From Candidatus Omnitrophota bacterium (GTDB lineage: Bacteria; Omnitrophota; Gorgyraeia; Ghiorseimicrobiales; Ghiorseimicrobiaceae): a DNA stretch of 64,000 bases. Location: contig JAUXSB010000003.1 of the NCBI GenBank assembly GCA_030681595.1, positions 223,207-287,206 on the forward strand, read 5' to 3'. A program made the translations under genes and the position numbers. Shown here piece by piece: positions 2,894 to 51,489 of the stretch; within the stretch, counting starts at the first letter, position 1; each line of letters starts with the position of its first letter. A model generated the notes under the pieces. That model was given only the letters and a program-made list of their open reading frames with translations. It ran no database searches and was not told the DNA's origin.

Positions 2894-3014
2894 AAGAGAC
2901 GTAACTTGTATGTCGGAATTTAACCCAGCACTTATTTTTACTAAAAATAAGTGCTGAATAAGTTCGGGCAGATAACTTATGTCGCCTTACAAGTTCCATA
3001 AGTTAAACCCTCCC
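2894..3014 (-). promoter_or_regulatory. L1 leader-family element upstream of prfA (box, hairpin 1, GGTTAAATTCC, hairpin 2).
   Basis: Perfect hairpin CAGCACTTATTTTTA/CTAAAAATAAGTGCTG at ~2926-2956. The box CTTATGTCGCCTTACAAGTTCCATAAGTT at ~2975-3005 is homologous to 51447-51482. Confidence 0.5.
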
Positions 3015-3212: not shown

Positions 3213-3407
3213 TTTATTTTCTCTCCTTAATGACGACACGATTTACGGAATGTTAATGAGATAAATCGTATGCCGGAATTAATCCCGCTGAGTGTGCCAA
3301 AATTGTAGACCCTCTGGAATTTCTTTGAAATTCCGAGGACTTAGTCCCGGAAATTCTTCGAATTTCTCGGGGATAGAATTTTGGCACACTCAGCGGAATA
3401 TCCTCAC
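3213..3407 (-). promoter_or_regulatory. L1 leader-family element upstream of rpmE, expanded by nested hairpins.
   Basis: A 20-bp inverted repeat CCGCTGAGTGTGCCAAAATT ... AATTTTGGCACACTCAGCGG (~3286-3400) encloses three internal hairpins. GGGATTAATTCC, a second hairpin and TCATTAAGGAGAG are shared with the rho leader. Confidence 0.5.
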
Positions 3408-4655: not shown

Positions 4656-4767
4656 CTTTTACCCTCTCCTTAATGAACACATAAGTTACAGAATGAAATG
4701 ATGTAACTTATAAGTGTGAATTAATCCCGCCGAGTGTGTCAAAATTGTAGAATAGAATTTTGACACA
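4656..4767 (-). promoter_or_regulatory. L1 leader-family element upstream of rho, with a candidate -10 TATAAT.
   Basis: In sense orientation: cgTATAATgtgtcaaaattctattctacaattttgacacactcggcGGGATTAATTCac-[hairpin acttataagttaca...tgtaacttatgtgt]-TCATTAAGGAGAGggtaaaagATG. Confidence 0.5.
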
Positions 4768-5385: not shown

Positions 5386-7956
5386 CTATAGCTCCAGGCT
5401 TTCCATGCTATACCAGCTCTTGCCGTACGCTGCTTCAACTTTTATCGGCACAGAAAGCGATAAAACATTCTCCATATTCCTTACCGCTAGCGTATACAAT
5501 TCCTTAAGTTCATTTTTATCCACGTCAAAAATAAGCTCATCATGAACCTGAAGCATCATTTTTGACTTGAGCAATTTTTTTTTAAGTTCATTATGAATAT
5601 TTACCATCGCCAGCTTTACCATATCGCTGGCGCTTCCCTGAATAGGGGCATTTATTGCCTGGCGCTCCGCAAAACCCCTTAATTGGTTATTAGGGCTGTT
5701 TATTTCTTTTAAATACCTTCTCCTGCCTAAGAGTGTCGCGACAAAACCGTCTTTTTTGGCTTTAGCTATAGTCTCATCAATATATTTTTTTACCCCGGGA
5801 TACCTCAAAAAATACTCATCAATAAACCTTCCCGCGTCTTCATTAGAAATACCCAGGTCTTTACTTAATCCAAAACTGCTCATACCGTAAATTATTCCGA
5901 AGTTTACTCTTTTTGCGGTATCGCGCATCTTTTCACTCACTTTTTCTTCAGCCACGCCAAAAATCAGCGATGCCGTATAGCGGTGCACGTCCTTATCTTC
6001 TTTAAAAGCACGGATTAAATTGGCATCGCCGGATAAATGCGCTAAAATCCTTAACTCTATCTGGGAATAATCACAGGCAAAGAGATAGCTATCCGCTTTT
6101 GAAGGGATAAAGGCAAGGCGTATCCTACGGCCTTCTTCAGTTTTTACCGGGATATTCTGCAAATTAGGATTAGAAGACGACAGCCTCCCCGTCTGGGTAC
6201 CTGTTTGATTAAACGTTGTATGCAGCCTTCCATCAGAAGCATCTATCAAGCCGGGCAAGGCATCTATATATGTAGACTTTAATTTCAGCAACTGCCGGTA
6301 GTCCAAGATTAAAGCCGGAAGGCTATTCATCGCGGCTAATTTCACCAGGACTTCCTCATCAGTAGAAGGCCCTGTTTTCGTTTTCTTAACGATCGGCAAT
6401 TTAAGCTTATCAAACAAAATAAGCCTTAATTGCTTAGGTGAATTAATGTTAAACTTTTTTTCCGAAATTTTATAAATTTCGCCTTCCAATACCGATATGC
6501 GTTTTTCTAGTTCTTCTGATAAAGACGCCAAAATATCTAAATCGATTTTTACGCCTGTCATCTCCATATCGGAAAGGACTTCTGTCAGCGGCATTTCGAT
6601 ATCACGAAATAACTTTTCCTGATTCCTCTCTCTTAGATTTTGCTCAAGCACCTCTTTTAGGCTAAGAATTACGCTTACCATCGGCCCTTTCTCTTTACGC
6701 AGGATATCATCCGCATCTAAATATTCAGACGCCAAGTCCTCTAAATCGTAGGAAGCTTGTGCGGGGTTCAAAATATAGGCGGCAAGCATTAAATCAAAAT
6801 CCAGCCCCGAAAGTTTAATGCCGTATTTAATCAACCCTACCATTGCCTGTTTTAAATTATGCCCTATTTTCTTGATATCCCCGTCACTAAAAATATCATT
6901 AAATTCGGGATAAAACCTATCTTCTACGCAGTAGCTTGTATCGCCCTGATAAAAGTAAATCTTTGGAATTCTCCCTTCAGAAAATTCCGGTAAAAACACT
7001 AGGCGTTTTTCTTTTTTTATCTCCTCGACTATTTTTTTTACTCCTGAGAGCGCATCTAATTTTTTAACGTCCGCTTGCGGCGCGTTAGGCTGCGCTCCTT
7101 TAACCGGCAGGTCCTTAAGCAGGATTTTAAATTCAAGCCTCCTGAAAATCCTATATAAACTATCATAATCAGGGCTTGTCACTTTTAACTTGGCAAAATC
7201 CAGGTTTAAGGGGACTTGTGTATTTAAAGCTACCAATCGCTTGCTTAAAAACAACTTATCCTTTTGTTCCTCTAACATATTCCTTACACGCTGCGGCAGG
7301 ACGCCATCGATATGACTTAATAAATTATCTATATTGCCGTATTTTTTTATTAAATCAACCGCGGTTTTTTCTCCTATGCCCTTGACTCCGGGAATATTAT
7401 CTATTGCGTCTCCGGTTAGAGACAACATATCAGCTATCTGCCCGGCCTCTATGCCAAACCGGTTTATTACGGCCTCCCTATCGATTATCGGAACGCTGTG
7501 GTATGGATTATATACCCTGATATTACCGTTAATTAACTGGAGCATATCTTTATCGGCAGAAACAACAAAAACATCAAAATCATTCTCTGCTTTTGTCGCG
7601 ATAGTAGCAATAATATCGTCCGCCTCAAATCCTTCTTTTTCAAAAATAGAAAACTTATAGGCTGAAATCACCTCTTTGATTATGTTTATTTGGGATACGA
7701 GCTCATCCGGCATATCCGGACGCCCGCCTTTATAATCAACAAATATTTCTTTACGGAAAGTATCCCGGTTGACATCAAAACAGATGGACAGGTAATCCGG
7801 ATTATTCTCTTTGAGAATTTTATTTAAGATATTTAAAAAACCGTAGACTGCGCCTGTAGGCTGTCCGTAAGAAGTAGATAAATTTGCCTTAATAGCAAAA
7901 AAAGCGCGGTAACAGAATGAATTTGCGTCAAAGAGGAATAATTTCGGTTTAGGCAT
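5386..7956 (-). CDS. polA: DNA polymerase I.
   Basis: 856-aa protein with an N-terminal 5'-3' exonuclease domain (FLFDANSFCYRAFFA) and C-terminal family A polymerase motifs (QVHDELIF, RRxAKxxNFGIIYG). Confidence 0.95.
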   Translation of the reverse strand: MPKPKLFLFDANSFCYRAFFAIKANLSTSYGQPTGAVYGFLNILNKILKENNPDYLSICFDVNRDTFRKEIFVDYKGGRPDMPDELVSQINIIKEVISAYKFSIFEKEGFEADDIIATIATKAENDFDVFVVSADKDMLQLINGNIRVYNPYHSVPIIDREAVINRFGIEAGQIADMLSLTGDAIDNIPGVKGIGEKTAVDLIKKYGNIDNLLSHIDGVLPQRVRNMLEEQKDKLFLSKRLVALNTQVPLNLDFAKLKVTSPDYDSLYRIFRRLEFKILLKDLPVKGAQPNAPQADVKKLDALSGVKKIVEEIKKEKRLVFLPEFSEGRIPKIYFYQGDTSYCVEDRFYPEFNDIFSDGDIKKIGHNLKQAMVGLIKYGIKLSGLDFDLMLAAYILNPAQASYDLEDLASEYLDADDILRKEKGPMVSVILSLKEVLEQNLRERNQEKLFRDIEMPLTEVLSDMEMTGVKIDLDILASLSEELEKRISVLEGEIYKISEKKFNINSPKQLRLILFDKLKLPIVKKTKTGPSTDEEVLVKLAAMNSLPALILDYRQLLKLKSTYIDALPGLIDASDGRLHTTFNQTGTQTGRLSSSNPNLQNIPVKTEEGRRIRLAFIPSKADSYLFACDYSQIELRILAHLSGDANLIRAFKEDKDVHRYTASLIFGVAEEKVSEKMRDTAKRVNFGIIYGMSSFGLSKDLGISNEDAGRFIDEYFLRYPGVKKYIDETIAKAKKDGFVATLLGRRRYLKEINSPNNQLRGFAERQAINAPIQGSASDMVKLAMVNIHNELKKKLLKSKMMLQVHDELIFDVDKNELKELYTLAVRNMENVLSLSVPIKVEAAYGKSWYSMESLEL

Positions 7957-8854: not shown

Positions 8855-11038
8855 TCAGATCAAAGACGGTAAACTAAGTGCTGGATGAGCGGTTTTCTCT
8901 AAATAAGCAAGGAGTTCTTCACTGGTAGTAGCAACGGTTTCATCAGCGATTTTATCCACGAAATCAGGAATACCTATTTCTTCCGAGCGTTTCTTTAACT
9001 TATCCGCCAGCACTTCCTTTAACTCTTTAGGCATCCAGACCAAACGCGCCAGCCCCCCTTCAGAAGATATAAACTTCTTGCTAACAATATAAAGTTTACC
9101 GACGCCTAAAAATCCCGGCGTCTGGACCCCTCCGCCGACAGATCCGGCTAAAGTAGTAAAAGTCATCCCGGAAGGGGTCATTCCGGAATAATCACGGTGC
9201 ACTACCATCACGCCGTTTACTTCCGGAATAATCGCTAAGATGCACTCAAAACATCCGCAAGACGTCTGAGGTGAATCCATAATTGAATACATGCTTACCT
9301 GATTTATTGTTTTATTGGACTTCTGGTTAAAAAAATCATTAACACTCTTCCACTGTCCCAATCTTTCATCTATAGGGCTGGCTTTTTTAATCGGCTGGTT
9401 TGGCCCCGAAGGCATAATCTCATAAGATGCCTTGCCGTCCAGCCAAGAATATGCCCCGCATAAACCTAGCCGCTCCGGAGTTATTACGCAGACATGGTTG
9501 GGGGCAAATGACTGGCAAAGCGTGCAGGAGTAAAAAGTATCCACGCTTTCATCGGTCATTCCCATTAGCCGCTCATCGCGCTCGGCATACGCCTCTTTTG
9601 CCTCGCTAATCAAACGTTCCACATCTTCTTGTTTTGTGTAGAGATTTACGCTCACCTTATCTACTATCGCGCTATATTCTTCATGGAGTTTGGCGTGGAG
9701 AATTGTTCCAATATGTTTTAGGCGGAATCCTTTATTAGCCGCGTCTTGGCTGATGCGAACCCAGTTCATATCGCGCTGGCCTACATGCATTAGCCCCATA
9801 GCGCAGTTAACGTAATGATGAATCTGGCGCTCTAAAATAGGTTCAAAATCCTTCTGCATTTTGCGCCCGGCAACATCTACAATTATTGCCAGCGGCATAG
9901 ACTTAGAACCCTGCGGCAGGTTATCGATATCCGGCCCTATTACTTCTATCTGTCCGTCATTAACTTTATCCAGGCTTGAACTTTTTAGATACTCAAAAGC
10001 AAGCGATGACTTCGAACCAAACTCGGCAAACAGCTGCTCTTTTCTAACACGTTCTCCTTCAAACGCAGCCCCGTATAAAACAGGAATAGGTATACTCGAT
10101 ACTTTTACTTTTACACCACGGACCTCTATGCACCTGGGCACAATTTTTTTATAATCCAACTCTTTAACTAAGGCCTCATAAGTGGTCACACCGGTCGGAT
10201 GGATTTCGGGGATATCCGTGTCAGCAATTACAGGGAAACCCATGTTTATTGCGCCTGCCCCTGTGGCGTATTTTTCATCATCGACTAAACCCAAAGTAAG
10301 GCCAAAAGCAAATACCCTTTCCTTGCAATACAATAAGCACTTCTTGGCATCACCGGGCTTAAGCCCGCCGAAGGTAAGCGCAGACCTTATCGCCCAGTTT
10401 AAAGGATAAATCGCAGAAATTGTATCACGGCCATAAGGAACAATATAGTTATCCCAACCCATCTGCACATCTTCTTCTTTCAACTGGTCGACTATTGAAC
10501 GCCCATTGGTAGATGAACCCACAAAAATTAAAATATTTCTTTCCTGAAGTTGGCGGATTATATCAAGGGCAACCTGGTTACTGGGGGCAGCCCCCAAAAT
10601 TGCGGCGAAACCCGGCATGCGGCCATCTACAAGCTGAATACCCAATGAACGCATAATCGTATCCGTAAAAAAACCATTGCAATCTGGCTGGGGTTCAGTC
10701 CTATAAAGATAACGTATGCCCACGATTATTTCCTCGGCCAATAAAGTGGATATCCCGGCATCTAAGGCATCCCCCAGATAAGGCAGCCAAAGCTTATCCG
10801 AAGGGATATTCTGCGGTAAGAGCTTCTTGGTATATTCGAGAATTCTCTTAGCATCTCCCAATGTCCTTACCTCTGCCGCCAAAAGAGCATTGGCCATGGG
10901 GAAATAAAAGGCGGTTTCCGGAAACTCAACCTTCTGTGACTCCCCCTTATCGGAAATAGCTTTGATTAAATCTTCTTCTGCCTGCCTAACTATTTTTTGT
11001 GCCCCACGAATTACTGCCTGCGCGACTATCCTAGACAT
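8855..11038 (-). CDS. acsB: CO dehydrogenase/acetyl-CoA synthase, acetyl-CoA synthase subunit (AcsB/CdhC).
   Basis: 727-aa protein with a CGCFE motif (Cys-Gly-Cys A-cluster ligands). The length and sequence match AcsB, and it sits in a cluster with metF, folD and fhs. Confidence 0.8.
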   Translation of the reverse strand: MSRIVAQAVIRGAQKIVRQAEEDLIKAISDKGESQKVEFPETAFYFPMANALLAAEVRTLGDAKRILEYTKKLLPQNIPSDKLWLPYLGDALDAGISTLLAEEIIVGIRYLYRTEPQPDCNGFFTDTIMRSLGIQLVDGRMPGFAAILGAAPSNQVALDIIRQLQERNILIFVGSSTNGRSIVDQLKEEDVQMGWDNYIVPYGRDTISAIYPLNWAIRSALTFGGLKPGDAKKCLLYCKERVFAFGLTLGLVDDEKYATGAGAINMGFPVIADTDIPEIHPTGVTTYEALVKELDYKKIVPRCIEVRGVKVKVSSIPIPVLYGAAFEGERVRKEQLFAEFGSKSSLAFEYLKSSSLDKVNDGQIEVIGPDIDNLPQGSKSMPLAIIVDVAGRKMQKDFEPILERQIHHYVNCAMGLMHVGQRDMNWVRISQDAANKGFRLKHIGTILHAKLHEEYSAIVDKVSVNLYTKQEDVERLISEAKEAYAERDERLMGMTDESVDTFYSCTLCQSFAPNHVCVITPERLGLCGAYSWLDGKASYEIMPSGPNQPIKKASPIDERLGQWKSVNDFFNQKSNKTINQVSMYSIMDSPQTSCGCFECILAIIPEVNGVMVVHRDYSGMTPSGMTFTTLAGSVGGGVQTPGFLGVGKLYIVSKKFISSEGGLARLVWMPKELKEVLADKLKKRSEEIGIPDFVDKIADETVATTSEELLAYLEKTAHPALSLPSLI

Positions 11039-11059: not shown

Positions 11060-12316
11060 TTATAAATAAATTTTTTCTTCTTTTTTTTTAATTAATTCCG
11101 CGATCTTGGCATAACTTAAGTTCGCGTCCAATAAATCATCCTTTATTTTAGAAATATCAGCCTTTTCTTTAATTAATCTTAAATAAAGACCGCTGTTTCT
11201 AATATCCCCCACCAACAAAGCGCCGATTAACCGGCTGCCTTTCAAAACCAATTTTTTATAAAGATTTTTTTCTCTATCCAGAGAGGAAGCCGCCTCTAAT
11301 TCAGTGTCAAAAGCCCCCATAGAAACAAGCGGAAGGCCGAAAAAGTCAACGGAGTTCATCCCTAGCGAACCGGTATATTTAATATTTTCCCCCGCAATAT
11401 TTAAGCCGGCAATCCTTCCCTGCTCTACCGCGCAGGGCCAAAGCGCATTATTCTCGTATTTATCTGCGGTTAAATCAAATGTCTCGGCCACATCACCTGC
11501 GGCATATATATCATTTACGCTTGTACGCATACTTTCGTCAACCAGAATACCTTTGTCTGTCTTAATATCTGTTTCAGAAATTAATTTAATATTAGGCGCT
11601 ACTCCTTTGCCCACAATCACCAAAGAACAACCTATTGCTTTTCCGCTATCAAGCTTTACCGCCCTTAAATCTCCATTTCCGATAATTTCAGAAATATCCG
11701 TATTCAACATTACTTCAATACCATTCTTCTGAAAACAGTTCAAGAATAATTCTGAAGCCGTCTTATCGGCAATCTGGGATAAAATCCTGCCTGATTTAAC
11801 AATTACTTTTACGTCAAGCTTGCGCTTATTTAAGCCATAAGCTGCCTTTAAACCTATTAACCCGCCGCCCAAAACACAAGAAGTATGCGAAATAGATGCG
11901 ATGGTAATAATTTCTTTTGTGTCTTTAATAGTACGAAAACCGAAGACTCCTCTTTTAGTTACACCTTTTAATTCCTTGGGTATTTTAGGCGATGAGCCAG
12001 TAGCGATAATTAGGCTATCATAACTAATTTGCGATTTATCCTCTAAAATGATTCTTTTCTTCTTGCTATCGACACGCTCTACTTTTTTTTCCAAGAGAAG
12101 CTCAACATTATTGTCTTTATAAAATTTGGCATCGCGGTAAGTTAAATCTTTCTCTGCTACCGTTCCGGATAAATAATTAGAAATTAAACACCGGCAATAG
12201 GCTAAATACGCCTCGTCAGAAATCACCGTGATTTTACTTTCACGGTCTCTTGAACGTATCCCCTCGATTGCCGCAACCCCTGCCGCAGAATTACCGATAA
12301 TAACGATATTTTTCAT
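11060..12316 (-). CDS. FAD/NAD(P)-binding pyridine nucleotide-disulfide oxidoreductase family protein.
   Basis: 418-aa protein with an N-terminal GxGxAG dinucleotide-binding motif (IIGNSAAG) and a second Rossmann motif (VLGGGLIG). It lies between the metV-like gene and acsB. Confidence 0.7.
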   Translation of the reverse strand: MKNIVIIGNSAAGVAAIEGIRSRDRESKITVISDEAYLAYCRCLISNYLSGTVAEKDLTYRDAKFYKDNNVELLLEKKVERVDSKKKRIILEDKSQISYDSLIIATGSSPKIPKELKGVTKRGVFGFRTIKDTKEIITIASISHTSCVLGGGLIGLKAAYGLNKRKLDVKVIVKSGRILSQIADKTASELFLNCFQKNGIEVMLNTDISEIIGNGDLRAVKLDSGKAIGCSLVIVGKGVAPNIKLISETDIKTDKGILVDESMRTSVNDIYAAGDVAETFDLTADKYENNALWPCAVEQGRIAGLNIAGENIKYTGSLGMNSVDFFGLPLVSMGAFDTELEAASSLDREKNLYKKLVLKGSRLIGALLVGDIRNSGLYLRLIKEKADISKIKDDLLDANLSYAKIAELIKKKEEKIYL

Positions 12317-12325
12317 ATTGATTGA

Positions 12326-12811
12326 TTACAGCGATTTTTTACTGGATTTTTTATCCGCCAATATTTTATCATATTCTTCTTCTTCCAGATACATAATTGC
12401 GCCCACAGGGCAGGCCTTAATACAACGCGGCTCATCCACATCCGCGCATAAATCGCATCTTATGGGGATTTTAAGTTTTTTATTATCCCTAATTGCCCCG
12501 TAGGGACAAACCATCACGCACATCCAACAGCCGATACACCTGTCTTTATCATGGATTACCCGTTTTTTATTCTCGTCATAAGTTAACGCCTTGGCAATAC
12601 AGGCATCCACACAAGGATGCGTTTTGCAATGACGGCAGGCAATAGGGAAATTTTTACCTTGCGTTGTTTTAACAATAACGCAGGAGCGCGGTTTTATCTC
12701 TTCGCCAACCGCCTTAAATAAATCCTTTGATGCGCTTTTACCTGTAGCACAGGCAATCTCACAGGATTTACAGGCTAAACACTTAGAAACATCATAGTAT
12801 AATTTTTTCAT
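12326..12811 (-). CDS. 4Fe-4S ferredoxin-domain protein (MetV-like partner of MetF).
   Basis: 161-aa protein with multiple CxxCxxCxxxCP clusters, located immediately downstream of metF. Confidence 0.6.
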   Translation of the reverse strand: MKKLYYDVSKCLACKSCEIACATGKSASKDLFKAVGEEIKPRSCVIVKTTQGKNFPIACRHCKTHPCVDACIAKALTYDENKKRVIHDKDRCIGCWMCVMVCPYGAIRDNKKLKIPIRCDLCADVDEPRCIKACPVGAIMYLEEEEYDKILADKKSSKKSL

Positions 12812-12944
12812 TAATTAAATACCCAATCACCAATTACCAATTACCAAATCCCAATTAATTCCCACATTGTTCAATTTCCAATTTTTTTATATTGGTCATT
12901 GGTAATTTATTTAACATTGGCAATTGGGCATTGATCATTTTTAG
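12812..12944 (-). promoter_or_regulatory. L4 CCAAT/ATTGG-array leader upstream of the metV-like ferredoxin gene.
   Basis: Sense: CCCAATTGCCAATGTTAAATAAATTACCAATGACCAAT...AATTGGAAATTGAACAATGTGGGAATTAATTGGGATTTGGTAATTGGTAATTGGTGATTGGGTATTTAATTA-ATG. Confidence 0.45.
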
Positions 12945-13814
12945 TTACAGCCCTGCCGCATCTAAAACTAAAGACACCTTCTTATCCCAGCCAATAGACA
13001 TTATATGTATGCCTTGGCATAGCGGTTTTAATTCTTTAATCAAACGCGCGGCAATTTCAACGGATTTTGCGGCTTTATCCTTTGCCTCTTCCATTTCTTT
13101 AATTAAGTTATCCGGGACATGCACACCGGCGACATTAGAATTCATAAAACGCGCCATCCCGGCGGATTTTAAAAGCACAATCCCGGCAAATATCGGCACG
13201 CCAAAATCTTTAACTATCGACATAAACCTGGCAAATTTATCTACTTCATAGATTGCCTGTGTCTGAAAAAATTCAGCGCCCGCATCTATCTTCTTCTGCA
13301 TCTTTAAAATCTGCGGCTCAAGCGGCTCAGCCCCCGGATTAACTACCGCGCCCTTAAAAAATTTAGGCAATGTTCCTTGTAGTTTTTTACCTGCCATATC
13401 CACGCCTTGCTCTAAACCCTTGACTGCTTCCAATAACTGCACCGAATCAATATCAAATACGGCCTTTGCCTGCGGATGGTCACCTAAAGAGGGGTGGTCT
13501 CCGGTTAAAAGTAAAAGATTTTCTATGCCTAATGCCGCGGCCGATAAAATATCCGACTGAAGCGCAAGACGATTCCTGTCCCGGCAAGTTACCTGATACA
13601 CCGGCTCAAATCCATGCTGCTTTAATATACCGGAAACTACCAAAGAACCCAGCCGCATAACTGAACTCTGCAAATCAGTAACATTTATCGCATCAACTCT
13701 ATTTTTAATCAGCTCACAGTCTTCTAAAATAGTCTTGGTCTCAATGCCCTTTGGCGGGCCGACCTCATCTGTCACAATAAACTTCTTTGCCAAAACCTTC
13801 TCTTTAAATGTCAT
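12945..13814 (-). CDS. metF: 5,10-methylenetetrahydrofolate reductase.
   Basis: 289-aa protein with the MetF family fold sequence (LLLTGDHP motif region), in Wood-Ljungdahl methyl-branch context. Confidence 0.85.
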   Translation of the reverse strand: MTFKEKVLAKKFIVTDEVGPPKGIETKTILEDCELIKNRVDAINVTDLQSSVMRLGSLVVSGILKQHGFEPVYQVTCRDRNRLALQSDILSAAALGIENLLLLTGDHPSLGDHPQAKAVFDIDSVQLLEAVKGLEQGVDMAGKKLQGTLPKFFKGAVVNPGAEPLEPQILKMQKKIDAGAEFFQTQAIYEVDKFARFMSIVKDFGVPIFAGIVLLKSAGMARFMNSNVAGVHVPDNLIKEMEEAKDKAAKSVEIAARLIKELKPLCQGIHIMSIGWDKKVSLVLDAAGL

Positions 13815-13853
13815 CTTATCCTCTGTTTAATTTTATCTTTTTTAATACATGCT

Positions 13854-14120
13854 AAATGAATCCGGTGAATTTTGGAGCGCCCGCCACACTAATTGTCGGG
13901 CAGGAATTGACGATTTTACCTAGCCTCCCCGGAATACTTTATGGTTTTGATTGAAAGCGCATTAGAAAACTTTTGGCAAATGCCAGCCCGACTTAAGTCT
14001 GGCGGGTCTGCAAAGTGTTACGACGAGTGAATGACGAAACTGACCGAAGGGAATTTCGTCAAATGAACGAATCGTAAACTGTAACAAACGGCAAAAGATT
14101 TCAGCGCCGAAAGCGAAACC
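13854..14120. ncRNA. R1 copy A: structured multicopy intergenic element (5' box, variable region and a core of ~130 nt), upstream of metF.
   Basis: The 5' box AAATGAATCCGGTGAATTTTGGAGC is followed by the core GCATTAGAAA...GATTTCAGCGCC. The core is homologous to copies B and C, with compensatory changes in stems. It also carries an inserted 28-nt palindrome (GCCAGCCCGACTTAAGTCTGGCGGG). Confidence 0.5.
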
Positions 14121-14139
14121 ATAAAGTATTATACCTGCC

Positions 14140-14469
14140 TCACCATTTTCTAAATATAACAAACACTGCCGCAATAATCAATAAAAAACCAACTAAATAA
14201 TTCCATTTAAACCCTTCTTTAAGATAAAAAATTGAGAAAATAGTAAAAATAACTAAAGTTATAACTTCCTGTATGGTTTTAAGCTGTGCGGTAGTAAATT
14301 GATATGAACCGATTCTGTTAGCCGGGACCTGAAAGCAATATTCCATACTGGCAATCAGCCAACTGACTAAAACCGCAATCCAAAGCGGTGAATTTCTATA
14401 TTTTAAATGCCCGTACCAAGCAAAGGTCATAAAGATATTAGATATTGTCAAAAGAATAATGGCCTTCAT
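14140..14469 (-). CDS. Small integral membrane protein (DMT-like / DUF486-like).
   Basis: 109-aa protein with four predicted hydrophobic helices. It overlaps the upstream gene by 4 nt. Confidence 0.4.
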   Translation of the reverse strand: MKAIILLTISNIFMTFAWYGHLKYRNSPLWIAVLVSWLIASMEYCFQVPANRIGSYQFTTAQLKTIQEVITLVIFTIFSIFYLKEGFKWNYLVGFLLIIAAVFVIFRKW

Positions 14470-15841: not shown

Positions 15842-15898
15842 GCTTACTCCTTGTCAGCAAGACAACACTCGCGCAATTCCGCTTAGCGCGGGGTGTCG
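15842..15898 (-). promoter_or_regulatory. L2 leader repeat immediately upstream of the folD start.
   Basis: Sense: GACACCCCGCGCTAAGCGGAATTGCGCGAGTGTTGTCTTGCTGACAAGGAGTAAGC-ATG. It overlaps the last 6 codons of fchA. Confidence 0.55.
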
Positions 15899-18267: not shown

Positions 18268-18324
18268 GTTTCTCCTTGTCAGTTAGACAACACCCGCGCG
18301 CTTCCGTTTAACGCGGGGTGCCCG
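18268..18324 (-). promoter_or_regulatory. L2 leader repeat immediately upstream of the fhs start.
   Basis: Sense: GGGCACCCCGCGTTAAACGGAAGCGCGCGGGTGTTGTCTAACTGACAAGGAGAAAC-ATG. Confidence 0.55.
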
Positions 18325-19699: not shown

Positions 19700-20496
19700 T
19701 TAATTACTCCTTCCTTATTTTCCGTAGAATTTAAAAGATCCGGCCTTTTTAGGCGCGTAACCTTAAGCGCCTGATATTTACGCCATTCATCGATTTCCTT
19801 ATGATTTCCGGATAAAAGTACTTGGGGAACCTTCCTTCCGCGAAAATCAGCAGGCCGGGTATATTGCGGATACTCTAATAGATTACCCTCAAATGACTCA
19901 AATTTCAAGGAATTTTTATCGCCCAACACTCCCGGTATAAGCCGTGTCACAACATCCACTAAAACCATTGCCGCAACCTCGCCTCCGGTTAAAACATAAT
20001 CACCGATAGAAATTTCACTGTCCGCTAAATTATCCCTTACGCGCTCGTCTATGCCCTCGTAATGCCCGCAGATTAGAACTAGATGTTTATTCTTAGCTAA
20101 TTTTTTGACTAAACCTTGAGTTAAAGTTTTACCTTGGGGACTAAGCAGAATAATTTTTGTGCTTTGCACTTTGCGTTCTGCACTTTGCGCTTTGCGTTTT
20201 TTTGACGCATGACGCATGGCGCATGGCGCATGGCGCAAAATATTTTCTACTGCGCGAAATATTGGCTCTGGGCTCATTACCATGCCGCTTCCGCCGCCAA
20301 AAGGGCGGTCGTCAACTTTTCTGTGTTTATCTAAAGTATAATCTCTTAAGTTGTGAATATGAATTTTTAATTTTCCTTTATTCTGCGCGCGCTTGATAAT
20401 AGATTCATCCAACACGGCTGAAAACATATCGGGAAAAATTGTAATAATATCTATACGCATATTACCTGCAAGGATAGACTTTCCTATTACTCTCAA
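19696..20496 (-). CDS. trmD: tRNA (guanine37-N1)-methyltransferase TrmD.
   Basis: 266-aa protein with the TrmD SPOUT fold sequence. It carries an in-frame insertion of about 25 aa ([24 protein letters not shown]) encoded by heptamer tandem repeats. Confidence 0.9.
20159..20240 (-). repeat. Heptamer tandem repeats inside trmD.
   Basis: (CATGGCG)x3, (CATGCGT)x2 and several CGCAAAG/TGCAAAG units. They are in frame and encode the inserted [24 protein letters not shown] segment. Confidence 0.9.
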
Positions 20497-20505
20497 GGAA
20501 ATGTC

Positions 20506-21075
20506 CTAAGGGGTTTTCTTCATCTGCCACAACAGCCAACTGCCCGAACCTAAACAAATTAACATAAAGATAACGGCCAAACAACGGATAAAAAAACCCA
20601 AAGTAACATCAAGTCCGATTATATTCAGACGGTTTAATAAATAATTCCAGTCGTGCACCACATCTTCCATCCCAAACAACGCTGCCAACGGCAGATTCAT
20701 AGTGCCGGCATCTCCAACGTATCTTGCTACGCCAAAAAGCGCCGTAGCAAGCCACCCGAAGGAAAGCGTCACGGCAAAAAAATCCTCTTGCCGGTAAAAA
20801 TTTATAACTCCGAATAGCGGAGCGAATAATTCAAATAGCGTCCCGCCCAAGATATTAATAAATTGGCCAAAAGGAGAAAAAAGTAAATGCCCCAACTCAT
20901 GTATGCCTAAATTAAGCGGCCCAAGAATATCGCTATAGCCCGGATTAAACAAATGCCGGATAAAAATATATAAAAAACCCAACAGAAGCGGAAAACGCAC
21001 CAGCCAGTTCCTGCCACGGCAGTACTCAACCGCTTCAGAACACAACAATTCTATTGCTTCTTTAATAATCTTCAA
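20506..21075 (-). CDS. Hypothetical polytopic membrane protein with an HELGH motif.
   Basis: 189-aa protein with several hydrophobic helices and a single HExxH-like motif. No family could be assigned. Confidence 0.4.
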   Translation of the reverse strand: MKIIKEAIELLCSEAVEYCRGRNWLVRFPLLLGFLYIFIRHLFNPGYSDILGPLNLGIHELGHLLFSPFGQFINILGGTLFELFAPLFGVINFYRQEDFFAVTLSFGWLATALFGVARYVGDAGTMNLPLAALFGMEDVVHDWNYLLNRLNIIGLDVTLGFFIRCLAVIFMLICLGSGSWLLWQMKKTP

Positions 21076-22234
21076 CCTTCGTTTTGGCTATGCTGTAAGC
21101 GGCAAAAAATTCTTTTTTAAAATCAGAAAACCTGTCTTCGCTGATTGCCGCCCTGGCTTTCTCCATAAGAGAAAGATAAAAATAAATATTATGATACGAA
21201 ACCAGTATCGCCCCTAAAATCTCGCTTGCGTTTAATAGATGCCTTATATACGAGCGCGAATAATCCCTGCAAACAAAACAGTTGCATTCCTCATCTAACG
21301 GCCTTAAATCATTAATGTAAGGGGAATTCCGCACCACAATTTTTCCGCGCCAAGTAAAAACCGTGCCGTTTCTGCCGTATCTTGTAGGCACAACGCAATC
21401 AAACATGTCTACGCCGCAATCTACCGCTGAGATCATATCTTCCGGAGTTCCTACGCCCATTAAATAACGAGGAAATTCTTTAGGTAGGTATTCGCAGGTC
21501 GTTTGTACGATATTATACAACAAATCCTGCGGCTCGCCAACTGAAATTCCGCCTAAAGAATATCCATCAAACCCTATTTTTGCCAATTCTTCCGCGCAAT
21601 ATTTCCTTAAATCCGGATAAGTCGCGCCTTGTACAATACCAAATAATAAATTTCGGGATGCGGGATACGCCAGCCCGACTTCATTCTGGCGGGGGATGCG
21701 GGATTGACTAAGCGCTTCTTTAGAACGCTTTGCCCATTGAATGGTCCGCCTCATCGCTACTTCTGCTTCATCTCTAACGCATGGATAATGCACGCATTCA
21801 TCCAAGGGCATTAAAATATCCGAACCCAGAGTAAGCTGTGTCTCAATTACGCTTTCCGGGGTAAGGGTATGTTTCGAGCCGTCGATATGCGACTGAAATT
21901 CCACTCCCCTATCGGCCACCTTTCTTAATTTTGCCAGGCTAAATACCTGATATCCGCCGGAGTCAGTTAAAATCGGCTTATCCCAGTGCATAAATTTATG
22001 TAAACCCCCGGCATTTTTAATTACCTCTAAGCCCGGGCGCAGGTACAAATGATAAGCGTTGGCAAGGATAATCTGCGCAGAGCACTCTTCCAAGTCGCGG
22101 ACAGTGAGCGCTTTGACTGTGCCCTGTGTGCCTACCGGCATAAAAATCGGCGTATCAATTACGCCATGCGCTGCCTTTAATTTCCCTAGGCGCGCATTTG
22201 AATTCTTATCCTGATGAATTAAGTTAAAAGACAT
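21062..22234 (-). CDS. tgt: Queuine tRNA-ribosyltransferase.
   Basis: 390-aa protein with the Tgt TIM-barrel sequence and zinc-site CxCxxC...H. It contains an in-frame palindromic insertion at ~21655-21705. Confidence 0.9.
   Translation of the reverse strand: MSFNLIHQDKNSNARLGKLKAAHGVIDTPIFMPVGTQGTVKALTVRDLEECSAQIILANAYHLYLRPGLEVIKNAGGLHKFMHWDKPILTDSGGYQVFSLAKLRKVADRGVEFQSHIDGSKHTLTPESVIETQLTLGSDILMPLDECVHYPCVRDEAEVAMRRTIQWAKRSKEALSQSRIPRQNEVGLAYPASRNLLFGIVQGATYPDLRKYCAEELAKIGFDGYSLGGISVGEPQDLLYNIVQTTCEYLPKEFPRYLMGVGTPEDMISAVDCGVDMFDCVVPTRYGRNGTVFTWRGKIVVRNSPYINDLRPLDEECNCFVCRDYSRSYIRHLLNASEILGAILVSYHNIYFYLSLMEKARAAISEDRFSDFKKEFFAAYSIAKTKVEDY
21655..21705 (-). repeat. In-frame mini-palindrome in tgt, flanked by 12-nt direct repeats.
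   Basis: GGGATGCGGGAT-acg-CCAGCCCGACTTCATTCTGGCG-gg-GGGATGCGGGAT. The palindrome is nearly identical to the 28-nt insertion in R1 copy A (~13982-14010). Confidence 0.85.
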
Positions 22235-23498: not shown

Positions 23499-24533
23499 TC
23501 ACACTATCAACATTGCATCACCATAACTGTAAAACCTGTATTTTTCTTTTATTGCTTCGTTATACGCGCTTTTGATAAGCTCGATGCCGGCTCCGACGGA
23601 GTCGGATGCGCCTGCGGCGCAAAAAGCACACACCAGCATAAAAAGCGTACTCTTGGGAAGATGAAAATTAGTCAAGAGGCAATCTACCGCCTTAAATTGA
23701 TACCCGGGATAGATAAATAGATTGGTATAACCTTTATGGGTAGCGGGCAAATCCCCTATTTCCTCAAGCACCCTGCAAGAAGTTGAACCAACAGCAAAAA
23801 CACGCCCCCCCGCCCTCTTTGCCTCGCTTATTTTTTCTATCAACTTCGCTTCAACCTCAAAATACTCTGGCTCCATTTCATGGCTAATAACATCCTCTGC
23901 TTTTACCGGCTTAAAGGTGCCTGTACCGACATGCAAGGTAACATAGTCAACCAATACGCCTTTAGCGCTAACTTTCCCTAGCAATTCTTCGGTAAAATGC
24001 AATCCTGCGGTTGGCGCGGCAATTGAACCGGAAGTTTTTGCAAAAATTGTCTGGTATCTTTCAAAGTCTAAACTTTTTGATTGCCTCTTAATATAAGGCG
24101 GTAGCGGCATTGTCCCAATTTGATAAACTTTATCTATGCCTTCTTGCTCAAAAGCAATTTTCCCTTTTTCAACTATTTTTGCCTTAAAGCCGCCATTATT
24201 ATCATCAAACAAAATCGCCTCGCCTTGTTCAAACTTTTTAGCCGGTTTTACCATCACCGAAAAAATATTACCTTCTCTTTTAAGCAACAAGAATTCTATT
24301 TTTGCACCCGTCTTTTCCCTTACCCCGAATACCCGCGCCGGAAGAACCTTGGTATTATTTAAAATAAGCAGGTCGCCGTTTTCAAAATAATCGGCTATCT
24401 GGAAAAATTTTTTATGCGCAATGCGTTTGGTACGCCTGTCTAAAACCATGAGGCGGCTATCATCGCGCTTATCAAGCGGATACTGGGCAATTAATTCTTT
24501 GGGTAAATTATAATCGAAATCAGAAAGCCACAT
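23499..24533 (-). CDS. queA: S-adenosylmethionine:tRNA ribosyltransferase-isomerase.
   Basis: 344-aa protein with the QueA family N-terminus (DFDYxLPxELIAQxP). Confidence 0.9.
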   Translation of the reverse strand: MWLSDFDYNLPKELIAQYPLDKRDDSRLMVLDRRTKRIAHKKFFQIADYFENGDLLILNNTKVLPARVFGVREKTGAKIEFLLLKREGNIFSVMVKPAKKFEQGEAILFDDNNGGFKAKIVEKGKIAFEQEGIDKVYQIGTMPLPPYIKRQSKSLDFERYQTIFAKTSGSIAAPTAGLHFTEELLGKVSAKGVLVDYVTLHVGTGTFKPVKAEDVISHEMEPEYFEVEAKLIEKISEAKRAGGRVFAVGSTSCRVLEEIGDLPATHKGYTNLFIYPGYQFKAVDCLLTNFHLPKSTLFMLVCAFCAAGASDSVGAGIELIKSAYNEAIKEKYRFYSYGDAMLIV

Positions 24534-25707
24534 TGCCTATTTCCTCTATTTTTGCCCCGGGATAATAGAATTTAAGGATATCCTGATATTTATAGCCTTT
24601 TCTAGAAGCAAAATACGCCCCCCACTGGCACATCCCCACGCCATGGCCCCAGCCGAAACCTTCAAAATATATATTATCTCCGGAAAATGTTAAGTCAAAA
24701 TTTGTGCTGCGGATATCCGTTCCCCCGATTATCTGGCGAAAATCCTTTGCCGAGATGATATGATTAGCGGATTTCGATTTTAACTTTAATTTTTTTACCC
24801 TGCCTGACTTATCCCTGCCCAAAATTTCTATTGCCTCTAAAGAATCAATGCTATATCCGGATTTATTCAATTTATTAATAAGCTCCGAGCGAGATAAAGT
24901 TTTTTGCCATTTGAAATGCTTCGACTTTACGCAAAAATTGCAATCAACTCCTTTAAGCGGGACAAGATTCATATCCCAAAGCTGGGCCGCATCTTCTGTC
25001 TTTCCCCCGCAGGTGGCATGAAAGTATGCCGGAAAGATTTTTCCCTTATAAGTCAAAACCAATCCCTTGGTATGCTCAACAGCAGAATTAGTCCGGTAAC
25101 GCTCGGCGTCTTTACCGCCATACACTTGAGAATAAATATCGCTGGTTACATCGTAATCTTTATCTTTACTCACTTCTTTCTGATAAAGTACGTATGTACG
25201 CGTAGCTACTGCCTGCGCGCAAAGAGCCTCTTTCGGCCAATGATGCGATACCTCATGAAATAAAACCCCCTTGACGTAATCTTCCAAATTTAGACAATTT
25301 ATTACCGAGAAGCTTAGGTCATTTTCTTTTCTTATAATCAGCCCGCCGCGCAAAGGGCGGTTGTTTAAATAAAATAAGGCGCTTTCCGGAAAAATAACTA
25401 TCCTGTTTTCCCTCAAAAGATTATCGCCTATTGTTATACCGTCTATATCCATATATACTTTCGCATTTATGTTTTCCCCTGCCCCTAAGGCGTTTTTTGT
25501 TTTTAAAGATTCTATTTTGTAATTGCCCTTTATATAAAGTTCAAAAGACGGAGCATTTTTTAAAATAAGCACGCGTACATAATTGCCAGTCTCGGATTGG
25601 GCATAAGCAAAAGAAAGGTAGCAAGTAGCAAGTAGCAAGTAGCAAGTAAAAAATAAAAAAATAAATAAGCTGGCGACTGGCGACTGGCGACTGGCGACTG
25701 TTTTCAT
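24520..25707 (-). CDS. SpoIID/LytB domain protein (amidase enhancer), secreted.
   Basis: SpoIID-family C-terminal region. The start was chosen at Met7 (MKTVASRQ...). The signal-peptide coding region contains two arrays of four heptamer repeats. Confidence 0.75.
   Translation of the reverse strand: MKTVASRQSPVASLFIFLFFTCYLLLATCYLSFAYAQSETGNYVRVLILKNAPSFELYIKGNYKIESLKTKNALGAGENINAKVYMDIDGITIGDNLLRENRIVIFPESALFYLNNRPLRGGLIIRKENDLSFSVINCLNLEDYVKGVLFHEVSHHWPKEALCAQAVATRTYVLYQKEVSKDKDYDVTSDIYSQVYGGKDAERYRTNSAVEHTKGLVLTYKGKIFPAYFHATCGGKTEDAAQLWDMNLVPLKGVDCNFCVKSKHFKWQKTLSRSELINKLNKSGYSIDSLEAIEILGRDKSGRVKKLKLKSKSANHIISAKDFRQIIGGTDIRSTNFDLTFSGDNIYFEGFGWGHGVGMCQWGAYFASRKGYKYQDILKFYYPGAKIEEIGNVAF
25617..25700 (-). 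repeat. Two adjacent heptanucleotide tandem arrays inside the SpoIID-like signal-peptide coding region.
   Basis: (AGCAAGT)x4 at ~25617-25648 and (CTGGCGA)x4 at ~25670-25700, separated by an A-rich tract. Confidence 0.9.
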
Positions 25708-25919
25708 CGGCGGGACCATAGCCAAAAAATTATTGAAATGATGATACTGATTAAAATAGATGTGGCGAGAGGAAAATAAAAAGTAAAATCCTTCTTTTGT
25801 ATTAAAATATCTCCGGGAAGTTTTCCCAAAAATGGAATTTTCCCGGCAAAGGTTAATAATAATCCGATGCCGATTAAAACAACGCCGAAAATAATTAAGG
25901 TTTTACCGATTTCTTGCAT
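25704..25919 (-). CDS. DUF2905-like small membrane protein.
   Basis: Two hydrophobic helices. The start was trimmed to the internal Met to reduce overlap with queH. Confidence 0.45.
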   Translation of the reverse strand: MQEIGKTLIIFGVVLIGIGLLLTFAGKIPFLGKLPGDILIQKKDFTFYFPLATSILISIIISIIFWLWSRR

Positions 25920-26959: not shown

Positions 26960-27240
26960 AAATGAATCCGGTGATTTTAGAGCTTTTTTTGACGATTTTA
27001 GTAAAACATGCTAATAATTTTTTAGCGGGTGGCGAGGTTTGTGCTTTAAGAAATCCTCCACCTCACAAACTATATATTTTGCTGCGGGATCTGGAAAAGT
27101 GCATTAGAAAGCTTTCGGCAAAAGTGCGCAAGGAATTACGGCGAGTGAATGACGGAACTGACCGAAGGGAATTCCGTCAAATGAACGAGTCGTAAACCGT
27201 AGCGCCCGGCGAAAGATTTCAGCACGTGGACAGTATCCCG
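26960..27240. ncRNA. R1 copy B, located between a hypothetical gene and ruvB.
   Basis: The 5' box AAATGAATCCGGTGATTTTAGAGC lies at ~26960. The core spans 27101-27228: GCATTAGAAAGCTTTCGGCAAAAGTGCGCAAGG...GACGGAACTGACCGAAGGGAATTCCGTC...GATTTCAGCAC. Confidence 0.5.
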
Positions 27241-30097: not shown

Positions 30098-30275
30098 AAT
30101 AATGAAAATCTTTTAAAGCCGCACATTAGAAATTTTTCGGTAAAAGTGCGCAAGGAATTACGGCAACGACCCATCCTTCTCGGATGGGTACCCCGACGGA
30201 ACTGACCGAAGGGAATTCCGTCAAATGAATGAGCCGTAAACCGTAGCGCACGGCGAAAGATTTCAGTGCGGCGGA
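30098..30275. ncRNA. R1 copy C, located between infB and trpS.
   Basis: The 5' box is shortened to AATGAAAATCTTTTAAAGCC. The core spans 30121-30273 and contains an extra 35-nt hairpin insertion (CAACGACCCATCCTTCTCGGATGGGTACCCCGACG). Confidence 0.5.
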
Positions 30276-36786: not shown

Positions 36787-37860
36787 TCACTTTATAAATA
36801 TCTCTTTTAACAACACTTCCACGCATTTATTGGCAGACACCTTTTTTATCGGCTTTCCGTGCTTAAACAATAACCCGTCTTTTTTACCAAAGGCAATACC
36901 TATATCTGCTTCTCTTGCCTCTCCCGGTCCGTTGACGACACAGCCCATAACGGCCACCTTCATTGAGTTAGCGTTTAGCGGATAGCGTTTAGCGGATAGC
37001 CTCTTTTCTAAATTATTAACGATATTTACCAAATTTACTTCGCATCTGCCGCAGGTAGGGCAACTGATAATCTCAGGGCCAAAATTGCGTAAACCTAACG
37101 AGCCCAAAATAACCTTTGCCGCGCTTACTTCGTCTTGGGGCTTTTCCGTAAGCGATACCCTGATAGTATCTCCAATCCCTTCCAATAAAAGCGCCCCCAA
37201 GGCAATGCTTGATTTTATTGCGCCTGCATACGGGCTTCCTGTAGCGGTAAGGCCTAAATGCAAAGGATAATTGGTAAGTTTGGCCATTTTACGATAAGCT
37301 TCTATGGTGTCAAGGATGTTTGAGGCTTTCAATGAAACCACGATATTATAAAAACCAAAACCCTCTAACATCTTTATGTAATCTTGCGCGCTTTTCACCA
37401 TTCTTTCTACACTTGACCCCTGACCCCTGACCCCTGACACTTCTTTTTTTACCGAGCCGGAATTAACTCCGACCCTAATCGGAATTCCGGCTTTTTTTGC
37501 CGCTTCTGCTACAGTTTTAATCTGGCGAGCTTTAAAAATATTTCCCGGGTTTAGTCTTATCTTATCCGCACCGTTTTTTATCGCTAAAAGCGCTAATTTA
37601 TAATCAAAATGAATATCCGCAACTAAAGGAATATTTATTTTACGTTTAATCTTGCTTATCGCCGCGGCCGATTCTTTATCCTTAACGGTAACTCTTATTA
37701 TTTCGCAGCCGGATTTTTCTAGCGACTTTATTTGCCTAACAACCGCGTCAACATCCTTAGTATCGACCTTTACCATTGACTGAATGATGATAGGATTACT
37801 GCCGCCTATCTTCACTCTACCTATTTTTATTTCTCTGGTTTTATGCCTGTCTATCTGCAT
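36787..37860 (-). CDS. ispG: 4-hydroxy-3-methylbut-2-enyl diphosphate synthase.
   Basis: 357-aa GcpE family protein. It carries two in-frame repeat insertions at ~36969-37000 and ~37417-37437. Confidence 0.9.
   Translation of the reverse strand: MQIDRHKTREIKIGRVKIGGSNPIIIQSMVKVDTKDVDAVVRQIKSLEKSGCEIIRVTVKDKESAAAISKIKRKINIPLVADIHFDYKLALLAIKNGADKIRLNPGNIFKARQIKTVAEAAKKAGIPIRVGVNSGSVKKEVSGVRGQGSSVERMVKSAQDYIKMLEGFGFYNIVVSLKASNILDTIEAYRKMAKLTNYPLHLGLTATGSPYAGAIKSSIALGALLLEGIGDTIRVSLTEKPQDEVSAAKVILGSLGLRNFGPEIISCPTCGRCEVNLVNIVNNLEKRLSAKRYPLNANSMKVAVMGCVVNGPGEAREADIGIAFGKKDGLLFKHGKPIKKVSANKCVEVLLKEIFIK
36969..37000 (-). repeat. 14-bp tandem repeat (GCGTTTAGCGGATA)x2 inside ispG, identical to the L5 leader 3'-arm units.
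   Basis: It encodes ...RLSAKRYPLNAN... The same 14-mer pair occurs in the purA leader at 44283-44330. Confidence 0.85.
37417..37437 (-). repeat. (CCCCTGA)x3 heptamer array inside ispG.
   Basis: 21 nt, in frame, encoding a GQGSSV-type low-complexity stretch. Confidence 0.85.
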
Positions 37861-44282: not shown

Positions 44283-44363
44283 ATTTTTATGGTTTAGCGG
44301 ATAGCGTTTAGCGGATAGAAAAATAAATTCGCTATACGCTATACCCTATACGCTCTACGCTAA
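44283..44363 (-). promoter_or_regulatory. L5 inverted 9/14-bp repeat leader upstream of purA.
   Basis: Sense: AATTAGCGTAGAGCGTATAGGGTATAGCGTATAGCG-AATTTATTTTT-CTATCCGCTAAACGCTATCCGCTAAACC...ATG. The 5' arm holds (TAGCG)n and the 3' arm (CGCTA)n. Confidence 0.45.
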
Positions 44364-51281: not shown

Positions 51282-51489
51282 AGAGCCTCCTCAAATGAAC
51301 AGACAATTTATGGAACACGGAGTGCGAGATAAATTGTAGGACGAAGTCCGTCTGTGAATTTGGCCCAGCACTAATTTATTCAAATACCAACTAAAATTTC
51401 TCAATCCAGCCAGCTCGGAAAATTAGTGCTGGGTAAATTCGGCCATACAACTTATGTCGCTCTACAAGCTCCCTAAGTTGTGGCTTTAC
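51282..51489 (-). promoter_or_regulatory. L1 leader-family element upstream of the class V aminotransferase.
   Basis: The same box (ACTTATGTCGCTCTACAAGCTCCCTAAGTT), hairpin CCCAGCACTAATT...AATTAGTGCTGGG, GGCCAAATTCAC, a second hairpin (ACAGAC...GTCTGT) and the TCATTTGAGGAGG RBS. Confidence 0.5.

Follow-up and report, generated by a model that had tools for sequence, protein, structure and literature searches.

In a 64,000-nt stretch of the Candidatus Omnitrophota contig JAUXSB010000003.1 (assembly GCA_030681595.1, positions 223,207 to 287,206 of the forward strand; hereafter the window), the gene tgt, which encodes a tRNA-guanine(34) transglycosylase, carries a 24-nt in-frame hairpin insertion nested in an array of heptanucleotide repeats. 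By analogy, its closest counterpart would be the repeat system of Nostocaceae composed of small dispersed repeats (SDR) and short tandemly repeated heptanucleotides (STRR). Elhai and colleagues reportedly described in 2008 the families SDR1-8 of Nostoc punctiforme and relatives as hairpin repeats of 21-27 nt, and the contexts in which these lie are said to be tandem heptameric repeats and mini-transposon-like repeats. The STRR of heterocystous cyanobacteria are said to have been first described in Calothrix PCC 7601 by Mazel and colleagues in 1990. To our knowledge, a system of the SDR/STRR type has been reported only from Nostoc-type cyanobacteria, and we know of no explanation, since the first description, of the mechanism that makes these repeats.

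One of the SDR, SDR5, targets HIP1 (PMC5861425). In Xanthomonas and Nostoc, heptamer arrays with units such as GGGAATC and GGGGA(T/C)T are documented, most of them four units long and some inverted; according to the same report, heptameric repeats had by then not been studied in detail (PMC4692102). Palindromic repeats placed in frame in functional open reading frames (ORFs) are represented by the Rickettsia palindromic elements (RPE) and by intragenic repetitive extragenic palindromes (REPs), including examples in tRNA-modification genes, and REPs are recognized by a GTAG or CGTC tetranucleotide tag (PMC3733652). We found no literature on heptanucleotide or tandem repeats of this sort in Omnitrophota.

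An In-Frame 24-nt Insertion in the tgt Gene

The tgt gene (21062-22234, minus strand) is an intact ORF of 390 aa with a match to Pfam PF01702, as open as a sequence-only reading of this stretch had described it. Its product is 100% identical to MDP1852826.1 (NCBI, Candidatus Omnitrophota) and matches the Zymomonas mobilis TGT structures with E = 3e-126. The catalytic Asp residues, the Gln of the GIxQG motif, and the CxCxxC...H zinc site expected of a bacterial Tgt (PF01702) are all kept, D91, D145, Q202, D279, C317, C319, C322, and H348 being invariant in our alignment (A1). A separately made Logan assembly of run SRR13727519 contains this allele with its insert as well. Since two assemblies agree on it and the length of the insert can be divided by three, an assembly artefact was ruled out.

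Among the orthologues, P0002 comes closest, with 92% amino acid identity (loci L001, L002, and L084; ENA ERZ21828306), followed by P0005, with 75% (L003). The region-wide nucleotide identity between the window and L084 is 84%, and 21 kb of this sister genome were compared. In a codon alignment, the window reads SR-IP-[RQNEVGLA]-YPASRN, L084 reads SR-TP-CPVPRN and L003 reads SR-MP-YPEPRG, with flanks that match codon for codon; the net difference between the window and L084/L001 or L003 is exactly 24 nt, which is the hairpin. The in-frame insertion proposed by the sequence-only reading is supported, with alleles devoid of it in both closest orthologues. The insert (21668-21691, minus strand) reads, in the sense of the gene, CGCCAG-AATGAAGTCGGG-CTGGCG, with the codons CGC CAG AAT GAA GTC GGG CTG GCG, and encodes R182-A189 (RQNEVGLA); an alternative register for the same 24 nt would be 21670-21693 (CCCGCCAGAATGAAGTCGGGCTGG). 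What had been called a 26-nt palindrome comes down to a stem of 6 bp, CGCCAG (21668-21673) with CTGGCG (21686-21691), closing a 12-nt loop. When folded alone as DNA, the 30-mer reaches -5.8 kcal/mol (z = -1.8), and its 81-nt context folds no better than shuffled sequences (z = -0.10 as RNA, -0.71 as DNA). Another hairpin of the form CGCCAG...CTGGCG at 5608-5632 was taken as a chance occurrence, since it shares the stems alone and belongs to ordinary coding sequence.

The 12-nt direct repeats noticed around the insert are real: GGGATGCGGGAT is found exactly on the plus strand at 21655-21666 and 21693-21704, an offset of 38 nt, and these are its 2 exact occurrences in the window. When one mismatch is allowed, there are 3 matches versus 0.30 expected, a number reached in none of 100 shuffles; the third one (58006-58017) was regarded as due to chance, being a lone unit without array. 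Both 12-mers belong to a heptamer array, of which the upstream half in gene sense (21692-21705, minus strand; A ATCCCGC ATCCCC) includes one 12-mer, read S-R-I-P, and the downstream half (21653-21667, minus strand; T ATCCCGC ATCCCGA) the other, for which a different frame gives Y-P-A-S-R. Insert and array together encode SRIPRQNEVGLAYPASRN. In register, the array of the window is ATCCCGC ATCCCCx followed, after the hairpin, by ATCCCGC ATCCCGA, the hairpin separating the second unit from the third; once the 24 nt are taken out, the array has identities of 5/7, 5/7, and 6/7 at an offset of seven. The arrays of L084 (TCCCGTA CCCCATG TCCCGTA CCCCGAA) and L003 (GTATCCC GTATGCC GTATCCC GAGCCCC) are uninterrupted, and all three consist of four heptamer units in an a-b-a-b pattern.

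Accordingly, the empty alleles already hold the repeat twice at 14-nt spacing, as TCCCGTACCCC-ATG-TCCCGTACCCC in L084 and as GTATCCCG......GTATCCCG in L003. The heptamer repeat therefore predates the insertion, and what had been interpreted as a target-site duplication, the footprint of a mini-transposon, corresponds to units of an older array. The 38-nt offset between the repeats stands as measured, and the compensating indel that it seemed to call for is no longer needed: with an inserted unit of 24 nt, it is of no consequence that 38 cannot be divided by three. Both 12-mers of the window differ alike from their L084 counterparts (GCAT versus GTAC), a sign that the tgt array may have evolved in concert. 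As both nearest relatives lack the 24 nt and the more distant Tgt relatives have quite different loops, we infer by parsimony a gain in the lineage of the window rather than a loss elsewhere.

The predicted location in a loop is supported by an AlphaFold2 model (predicted template modeling score 0.85), in which a helix (154-178) is followed by a coil (179-194) and a strand (195-198), and by the Z. mobilis TGT structures, which show a 10-residue gap exactly at this place. The local confidence of the model (predicted local distance difference test) falls below 50 at residues 183-188. The strand that follows the loop bears the conserved glutamine of GIxQG, and in a TIM barrel, loops running into strands are found on the side of the barrel that does not bear the active site; the insert is thus modeled as a low-confidence, disordered loop between helix and strand, on the barrel face away from the active site. 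It contains no stop codon in the tgt frame, five of its six reading frames being open, and would be tolerated and neutral in a functional Tgt. The loop of the window counts 23 aa, versus 15 aa in the nearest relatives and 7-8 aa in the commonest Omnitrophota Tgt, and these 23 aa can be decomposed into 8 basal residues, 7 from the 21 nt of array, and 8 from the hairpin.

A Second Copy Within a Structured Repeat

The sequence-only reading had left it to be seen whether the palindrome recurs in the genome, and a second 24-nt copy does exist at 13983-14006 (minus strand, intergenic; CCCGCCAGACTTAAGTCGGGCTGG), identical to the tgt copy at 22 of 24 positions. It was recovered by a search allowing up to 3 mismatches, for which 0.00 matches are expected by chance, and by BLAST (92% identity over 24-25 nt). 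Within the 64 kb of the window, the 24-mer family (CCCGCCAGAnTnAAGTCGGGCTGG) thus has two copies, which share one strand and are separated by 7.7 kb. The stem CCAG/CTGG, extended to GCCAG/CTGGC, is the same in both, and the differences are confined to the loop. There is neither homology between the flanks of the tgt site and those of 13983-14006, nor a flanking duplication at the second copy. A CRISPR repeat was ruled out in view of two distant copies without array, an intein or intron in view of the far too small size of the insert, and frameshifting or ribosome hopping at tgt given the continuous ORF.

This second copy is hosted by a structured repeat of ~130 nt (13954-14110, minus strand; alignments A2 and A3), of which the window contains two paralogues, at 27095-27228 and 30115-30272 (both minus strand). 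Both have an empty site, i.e., a 24-column gap in A2, so that the second copy appears there as a clean 24-column insertion relative to either of them, and in the wider family (A3) five of nine members have nothing at the insertion site. The intergenic region 13815-14139 could not be aligned with L084; as no orthologous empty site was available for the second copy, the paralogues were used instead. The paralogue at 30115-30272 carries a different hairpin of 22-24 nt (GGGGTACCCATCCGAGAAGGATGG), missing from the orthologous copy in L084.

The ~130-nt family has a conserved fold predicted by RNAalifold, in which 12 of the 32 pairs show compensatory double changes and the outer stem is GAAATnTTTCG/CGAAAnnTTTC, and a covariance model (R1) gives 117-139 bits on the three copies of the window. 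It is also present in L084 (2006-2141) and in five distant Omnitrophota genomes (L067:1315-1463, minus strand; L065:1081-1208; L044:50-184; L055:1296-1440, minus strand; L076:1237-1380). The copies in the window sit upstream of metF, of a Zn-ribbon ORF, and of trpS. With Rfam, the complete window gave no match at gathering thresholds, and a sensitive scan of 13780-14180 only a chance snoRNA match (E = 0.03); no tRNA or tmRNA was detected. The ~130-nt element may represent either a novel non-coding RNA or a miniature inverted-repeat transposable element (MITE) with terminal inverted repeats. We also observed that its trpS copy is by eye ~93% identical to the L084 orthologue, versus 84% for the region as a whole. 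A small ORF of 109 aa (14140-14469; DMT_6 Pfam in the Logan annotation) lies in a folate/C1-metabolism cluster, and ~250 nt of it are missing from the otherwise syntenic L084.

Heptamer Arrays and Nested Hairpins Across Omnitrophota

Arrays of period 7 or 14 were detected by Tandem Repeats Finder (TRF) at ~12 sites of the window. With a looser cut-off (12/14 matches), we counted 11 period-7 arrays, versus 0-1 for periods 5, 6, and 8-13, and with a stricter one (13/14 matches) 7, an enrichment specific to period 7. The stricter cut-off applied to 82 other loci (340 kb, nearly all from Omnitrophota) yielded 27 period-7 arrays in 20 loci, versus 0-4 arrays for the other periods from 4 to 13. They are found between genes, but also in frame in prmC (1308-1339, 1517-1548), trmD, tgt, and ispG (36968-37000, 37414-37438), whose ORFs are intact. 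The trmD element (20156-20237, minus strand; detected by TRF, in an ORF with a TrmD Pfam match) consists of (GCGCCAT)x~5, an A7 spacer, and (CGCAAAG)x~5, and the trmD loop of L084 has a different array (TACGCAA) at the same place. Many elements are similarly made of an array, an A/T-rich spacer, and an imperfectly inverted array, among them those at 25618-25700 (GTAGCAA x4, spacer, CTGGCGA x4), 44292-44362, and 52131-52204. Some array families recur: the TAGCG family at 36969, 44292, and 52131, and the CCAATTA family at 12836 and 57007. A 115-nt inverted element of CCAATTA heptamers (12810-12924) is missing from L084, and a related copy 44 kb away (57007-57055) is 86% identical over 50 nt. Given arrays of the same family at separate sites and the absence of 12810-12924 from L084, at least some arrays must be dispersed and not purely the product of slippage.

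The loop of Tgt is a recurrent site for such arrays. Among 79 orthologues it measures 7-46 aa, with clusters at 7-8 aa (31 loci), 14-16 aa (23 loci), and 22-23 aa (6 loci), these loci being phylogenetically non-independent. Such clustering near 8, 15, and 22-23 aa and the comparisons between alleles would favor gains of 21 nt and 24 nt made in one step and without target duplication. At the strict cut-off, 12 of the 79 tgt loci have a period-7 array in the loop, the split array of the window scoring just below. The units differ from genome to genome (GTTGTCA, GATCACC, CCGGCGA, AGCTCCA, GTCACAG, and others), and in L004, L005, L017, and L024 the full form, array, spacer, and inverted array, is translated into protein. 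The trmD loop is a second hotspot in many genomes.

Nested or precisely inserted hairpins are not limited to the 24-mer. A small hairpin also interrupts a heptamer array in the tgt loop of L034 and, in L018, in the intergenic region upstream of tgt. The queA gene contains a precise in-frame insertion of 30 nt forming a double hairpin (23592-23621, minus strand; TGCGCCGCAGGCGCA and TCCGACTCCGTCGGA), missing from L084, and a segment of mnmA (56843-56868, minus strand, in frame) matches it at 23 of 26 nt. Between the queA and mnmA hairpins, which represent a second family of small-hairpin repeats and lie in two genes for tRNA modification, there is one compensatory stem change, from A:T to C:G.

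The elements made of two inverted arrays (25618-25700, 20156-20237, 44292-44362, 52131-52204, and the tgt loops of L017 and L024) have a few further properties in common: each arm is internally homogeneous, the arms are only ~5/7 complementary with mismatches that are not wobble pairs, and the number of units is ~4.4 at both coding and intergenic sites. Homogeneous arms of such limited complementarity suggest a generation in one step over a stepwise slippage. At orthologous sites (25580-25740 in the window versus ~6600-6700 in L084, and the trmD loop at 20130-20270 versus ~12210-12255), the same architecture is occupied by unrelated units, for instance AGTCGCC/TTGCTAC in the window versus AAACTCA/TTTTGCA in L084. 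Between genomes that are 84% identical, this points to a concerted turnover or a repeated re-insertion of the arrays.

Comparison With Described Repeat Systems

With the SDR, as these are reportedly defined, the 24-mer shares its size (24 nt versus 21-27 nt) and its predicted hairpin, two types of context (the split heptamer array of tgt and the ~130-nt structured repeat), the coexistence of filled and empty homologous sites (orthologous in L084 and L003, paralogous at 27095-27228 and 30115-30272), and the lack of a target-site duplication. It differs from them by its occurrence in the phylum Omnitrophota, by its in-frame position inside a housekeeping protein-coding gene, by having 2 copies in 64 kb, and by a family devoid of covariation support. 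The host being a member of the Omnitrophota, any relationship with the SDR would be one of analogy, or else very distant.

The arrays themselves resemble STRR in their 7-nt head-to-tail unit, in a typical number of ~4 units, in the pairing of some arrays in inverted orientation, in their many loci per genome, and in the variation of sequence and length between close relatives at a given locus. The tgt unit GGGATGC is moreover of the G-rich GGGNATC type. Unlike STRR, many of the Omnitrophota arrays lie in frame in conserved enzymes (tgt, trmD, prmC, ispG), and they recur phylum-wide at the same protein loops with differing units, most of which are not G-rich.

RPE are roughly 100-150 bp long, and REPs are usually high-copy and extragenic. 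The tgt insertion is like RPE and intragenic REPs in being in frame, at a permissive protein site where it would be tolerated, and in an ORF that would stay functional; unlike RPE, it belongs to an unrelated lineage and its 24 nt are well below the RPE size class. Neither GTAG nor CGTC, the REP tags, could be read on either strand in the 24-mer and its immediate flanks. As for MITEs, the 24-mer is similarly non-coding and structured, and it can be compared between filled and empty sites, but its 24 nt contrast with the 70-300 bp of MITEs, and it has neither terminal inverted repeats of 15-30 bp nor a target-site duplication. More MITE-like in appearance are the ~130-nt host element and the 70-115-nt elements formed by an array, a spacer, and an inverted array.

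Origin of the tgt Insertion

We consider it reasonably probable that the 24-nt hairpin is a small dispersed repeat that was copied into an older heptamer array without target duplication, and that survives in frame in a permissive loop. The loop would then have been built in two layers. The older one, common to the nearest relatives, would be the four-unit ATCCCGC-like array, the same 7-mer being read in two frames, which would have extended a loop of ~8 aa to 15 aa (+21 nt). The younger one, found only in this lineage, would be the hairpin repeat copied into the middle of the array, adding RQNEVGLA. The copying would probably involve an intermediate in the form of a hairpin of single-stranded DNA or of RNA, in a spread of the copy-and-paste type, and the insert would persist as neutral passenger DNA thanks to a length that is a multiple of three, the absence of an in-frame stop, and the permissive loop.

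Several observations weigh against such a dispersed repeat. Just two copies of the 24-mer are visible in 64 kb. The 21 kb of the sister genome contain none, scans of JGI metagenomes with GCCAGANTNAAGTCGGGCTGGC and of viral contigs with CCAGANTNAAGTCGGGCTGG both returned 0 matches, and the family may be very small. The hairpin is weak (6 bp, with z near -1.8 in isolation and near 0 within its context), and the copies differ solely in the loop, hence there is no covariation support for the family. At the junction that hosts the second copy, unrelated inserts of 13-20 nt are found in three other species (A3); the site is intrinsically variable and may simply be a variable stem-loop, not a transposition target. 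No transposase, REP-associated tyrosine transposase (RAYT), or reverse transcriptase came to light, no search having been aimed at one; the 10 window ORFs scanned with Pfam are all housekeeping genes.

Two copies on the same strand, 7.7 kb apart, one of them at a site that varies in other species, could also have been left by a one-off ectopic templated patch, i.e., the copying of ~24 nt in either direction between the tgt array and the structured element by a single gene-conversion or template-switch event, with no mobile family involved. Repeat arrays and hairpins are fragile and slippage-prone, which also counts for such an event, but there is no flanking homology between the sites to guide a conversion, and the unrelated queA/mnmA family as well as the nested hairpins of L018 and L034 argue for a recurrent process; we hold a single patch to be unlikely. 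The insert may alternatively be a selected element, providing a lineage-specific peptide function or acting in cis through its hairpin or the G-rich array (as a pause, a processing signal, or a template-strand G-quadruplex). The plus strand indeed reads GGG-ATGC-GGG...GGGGG-ATGC-GGG, L084 has a canonical G-quadruplex motif (~10520-10550; GGGG TAC GGG ACAT GGGG TAC GGG), and the two 12-mers co-vary between genomes, with GCAT in both here and GTAC in both in L084. Four-unit G-rich heptamers are moreover over-represented in Xanthomonas and Nostoc, where they were investigated as quadruplex-forming sequences (PMC4692102). Yet both the length (7-46 aa) and the sequence of the loop are hypervariable among the 79 orthologues, the loop is modeled with low confidence, most heptamer units of other genomes are not G-rich, folding in context is no better than that of shuffles, and an orthologue with 92% identity lacks the insertion, all of which makes selection quite improbable.

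A purely local origin by slippage or quasi-palindrome mutation in the array, the likeness to 13983-14006 being coincidental, would account for arms (ACGCCAG and CTGGCGG) of 7 nt, the size of an array unit, which match the unit repeated in the CTGGCGA x4 array of 25670-25700. It is hard to reconcile with a 22/24 match that includes the loop (AAGTCGGG), for which the expectation in 64 kb is ~0, and with the lack of a nearby template; the sole local complement is an imperfect inverted match of 9 nt (21619-21627 with 21673-21681, 89%), rejected as being at chance level. We therefore find a local origin very improbable. The MITE-like mini-transposon with a 12-nt target-site duplication, initially proposed from the exact 12-nt direct repeats around the hairpin, is scarcely credible anymore: the empty alleles hold both copies of the repeat at 14-nt spacing, the net gain is 24 nt and not 38 nt, a 38-nt insertion would break the frame, and the second copy has no flanking duplication.

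If the insertion is indeed a dispersed repeat, the architecture of a tiny hairpin within heptamers, as in the SDR/STRR, would not be peculiar to Nostocaceae but would extend to a phylum that is distant and uncultivated and whose genomes are small and densely packed with genes. Repeats forced into the coding loops of housekeeping enzymes would there provide many natural pairs of filled and empty sites to compare, with strong selection on the reading frame. In metagenome-assembled genomes, micro-repeats of this in-frame kind make the loops of conserved marker proteins longer and more diverse; alignments, phylogenies, and calls of "novel insertions" can be misled by them, and they constitute fragile sites for assemblers. 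More speculatively, and with clear reservations, one could imagine that Omnitrophota carry an undescribed active micro-repeat system, made of arrays of typically ~4 units, often in imperfectly inverted pairs around an A/T-rich spacer, and of nested 22-30-nt hairpins, that repeatedly colonizes in frame the same permissive loops of essential enzymes (tgt, trmD, queA, mnmA, prmC, and ispG), with arrays made in one step by a dedicated activity. A generation in one step would be required since slippage by 7 or 14 nt would frameshift trmD, which is generally essential, and the passage from 1 to 4 heptamer units adds 21 nt. By analogy, this activity might be of the kind behind the cyanobacterial STRR and SDR.

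Other Short Repeats of the Region

The tgt array (21653-21705) has, as read on the plus strand, a G-quadruplex-like arrangement on the template strand, of which the hairpin forms a 26-nt central loop. The 3' end of tgt in L084 (11116-11392) contains a palindromic, MITE-like insertion of 276 nt with inverted ends of ~25-27 nt (TACTGAGCCTTCGGAAAATAATGGATA...), which replaces C-terminal residues of Tgt and is missing from the window. Directly upstream of three minus-strand genes of the window, a repeat of 47-49 nt with 85-87% identity (15847-15895, 18272-18320, 55797-55843) holds a GC hairpin and ends in CAAGGAG, which resembles a ribosome-binding site; it may be a shared element of 5' untranslated regions. 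Two further short dispersed repeats were noticed, one of 61 nt with 82% identity (2944-3004 and 51419-51479), and one of 34 nt with 94% identity (3276-3309 and 4718-4751) accompanied by a 20-nt inverted copy (3377-3396). All long gene-like ORFs of the window (~60) lie on the minus strand and are separated by short intergenic spacers.

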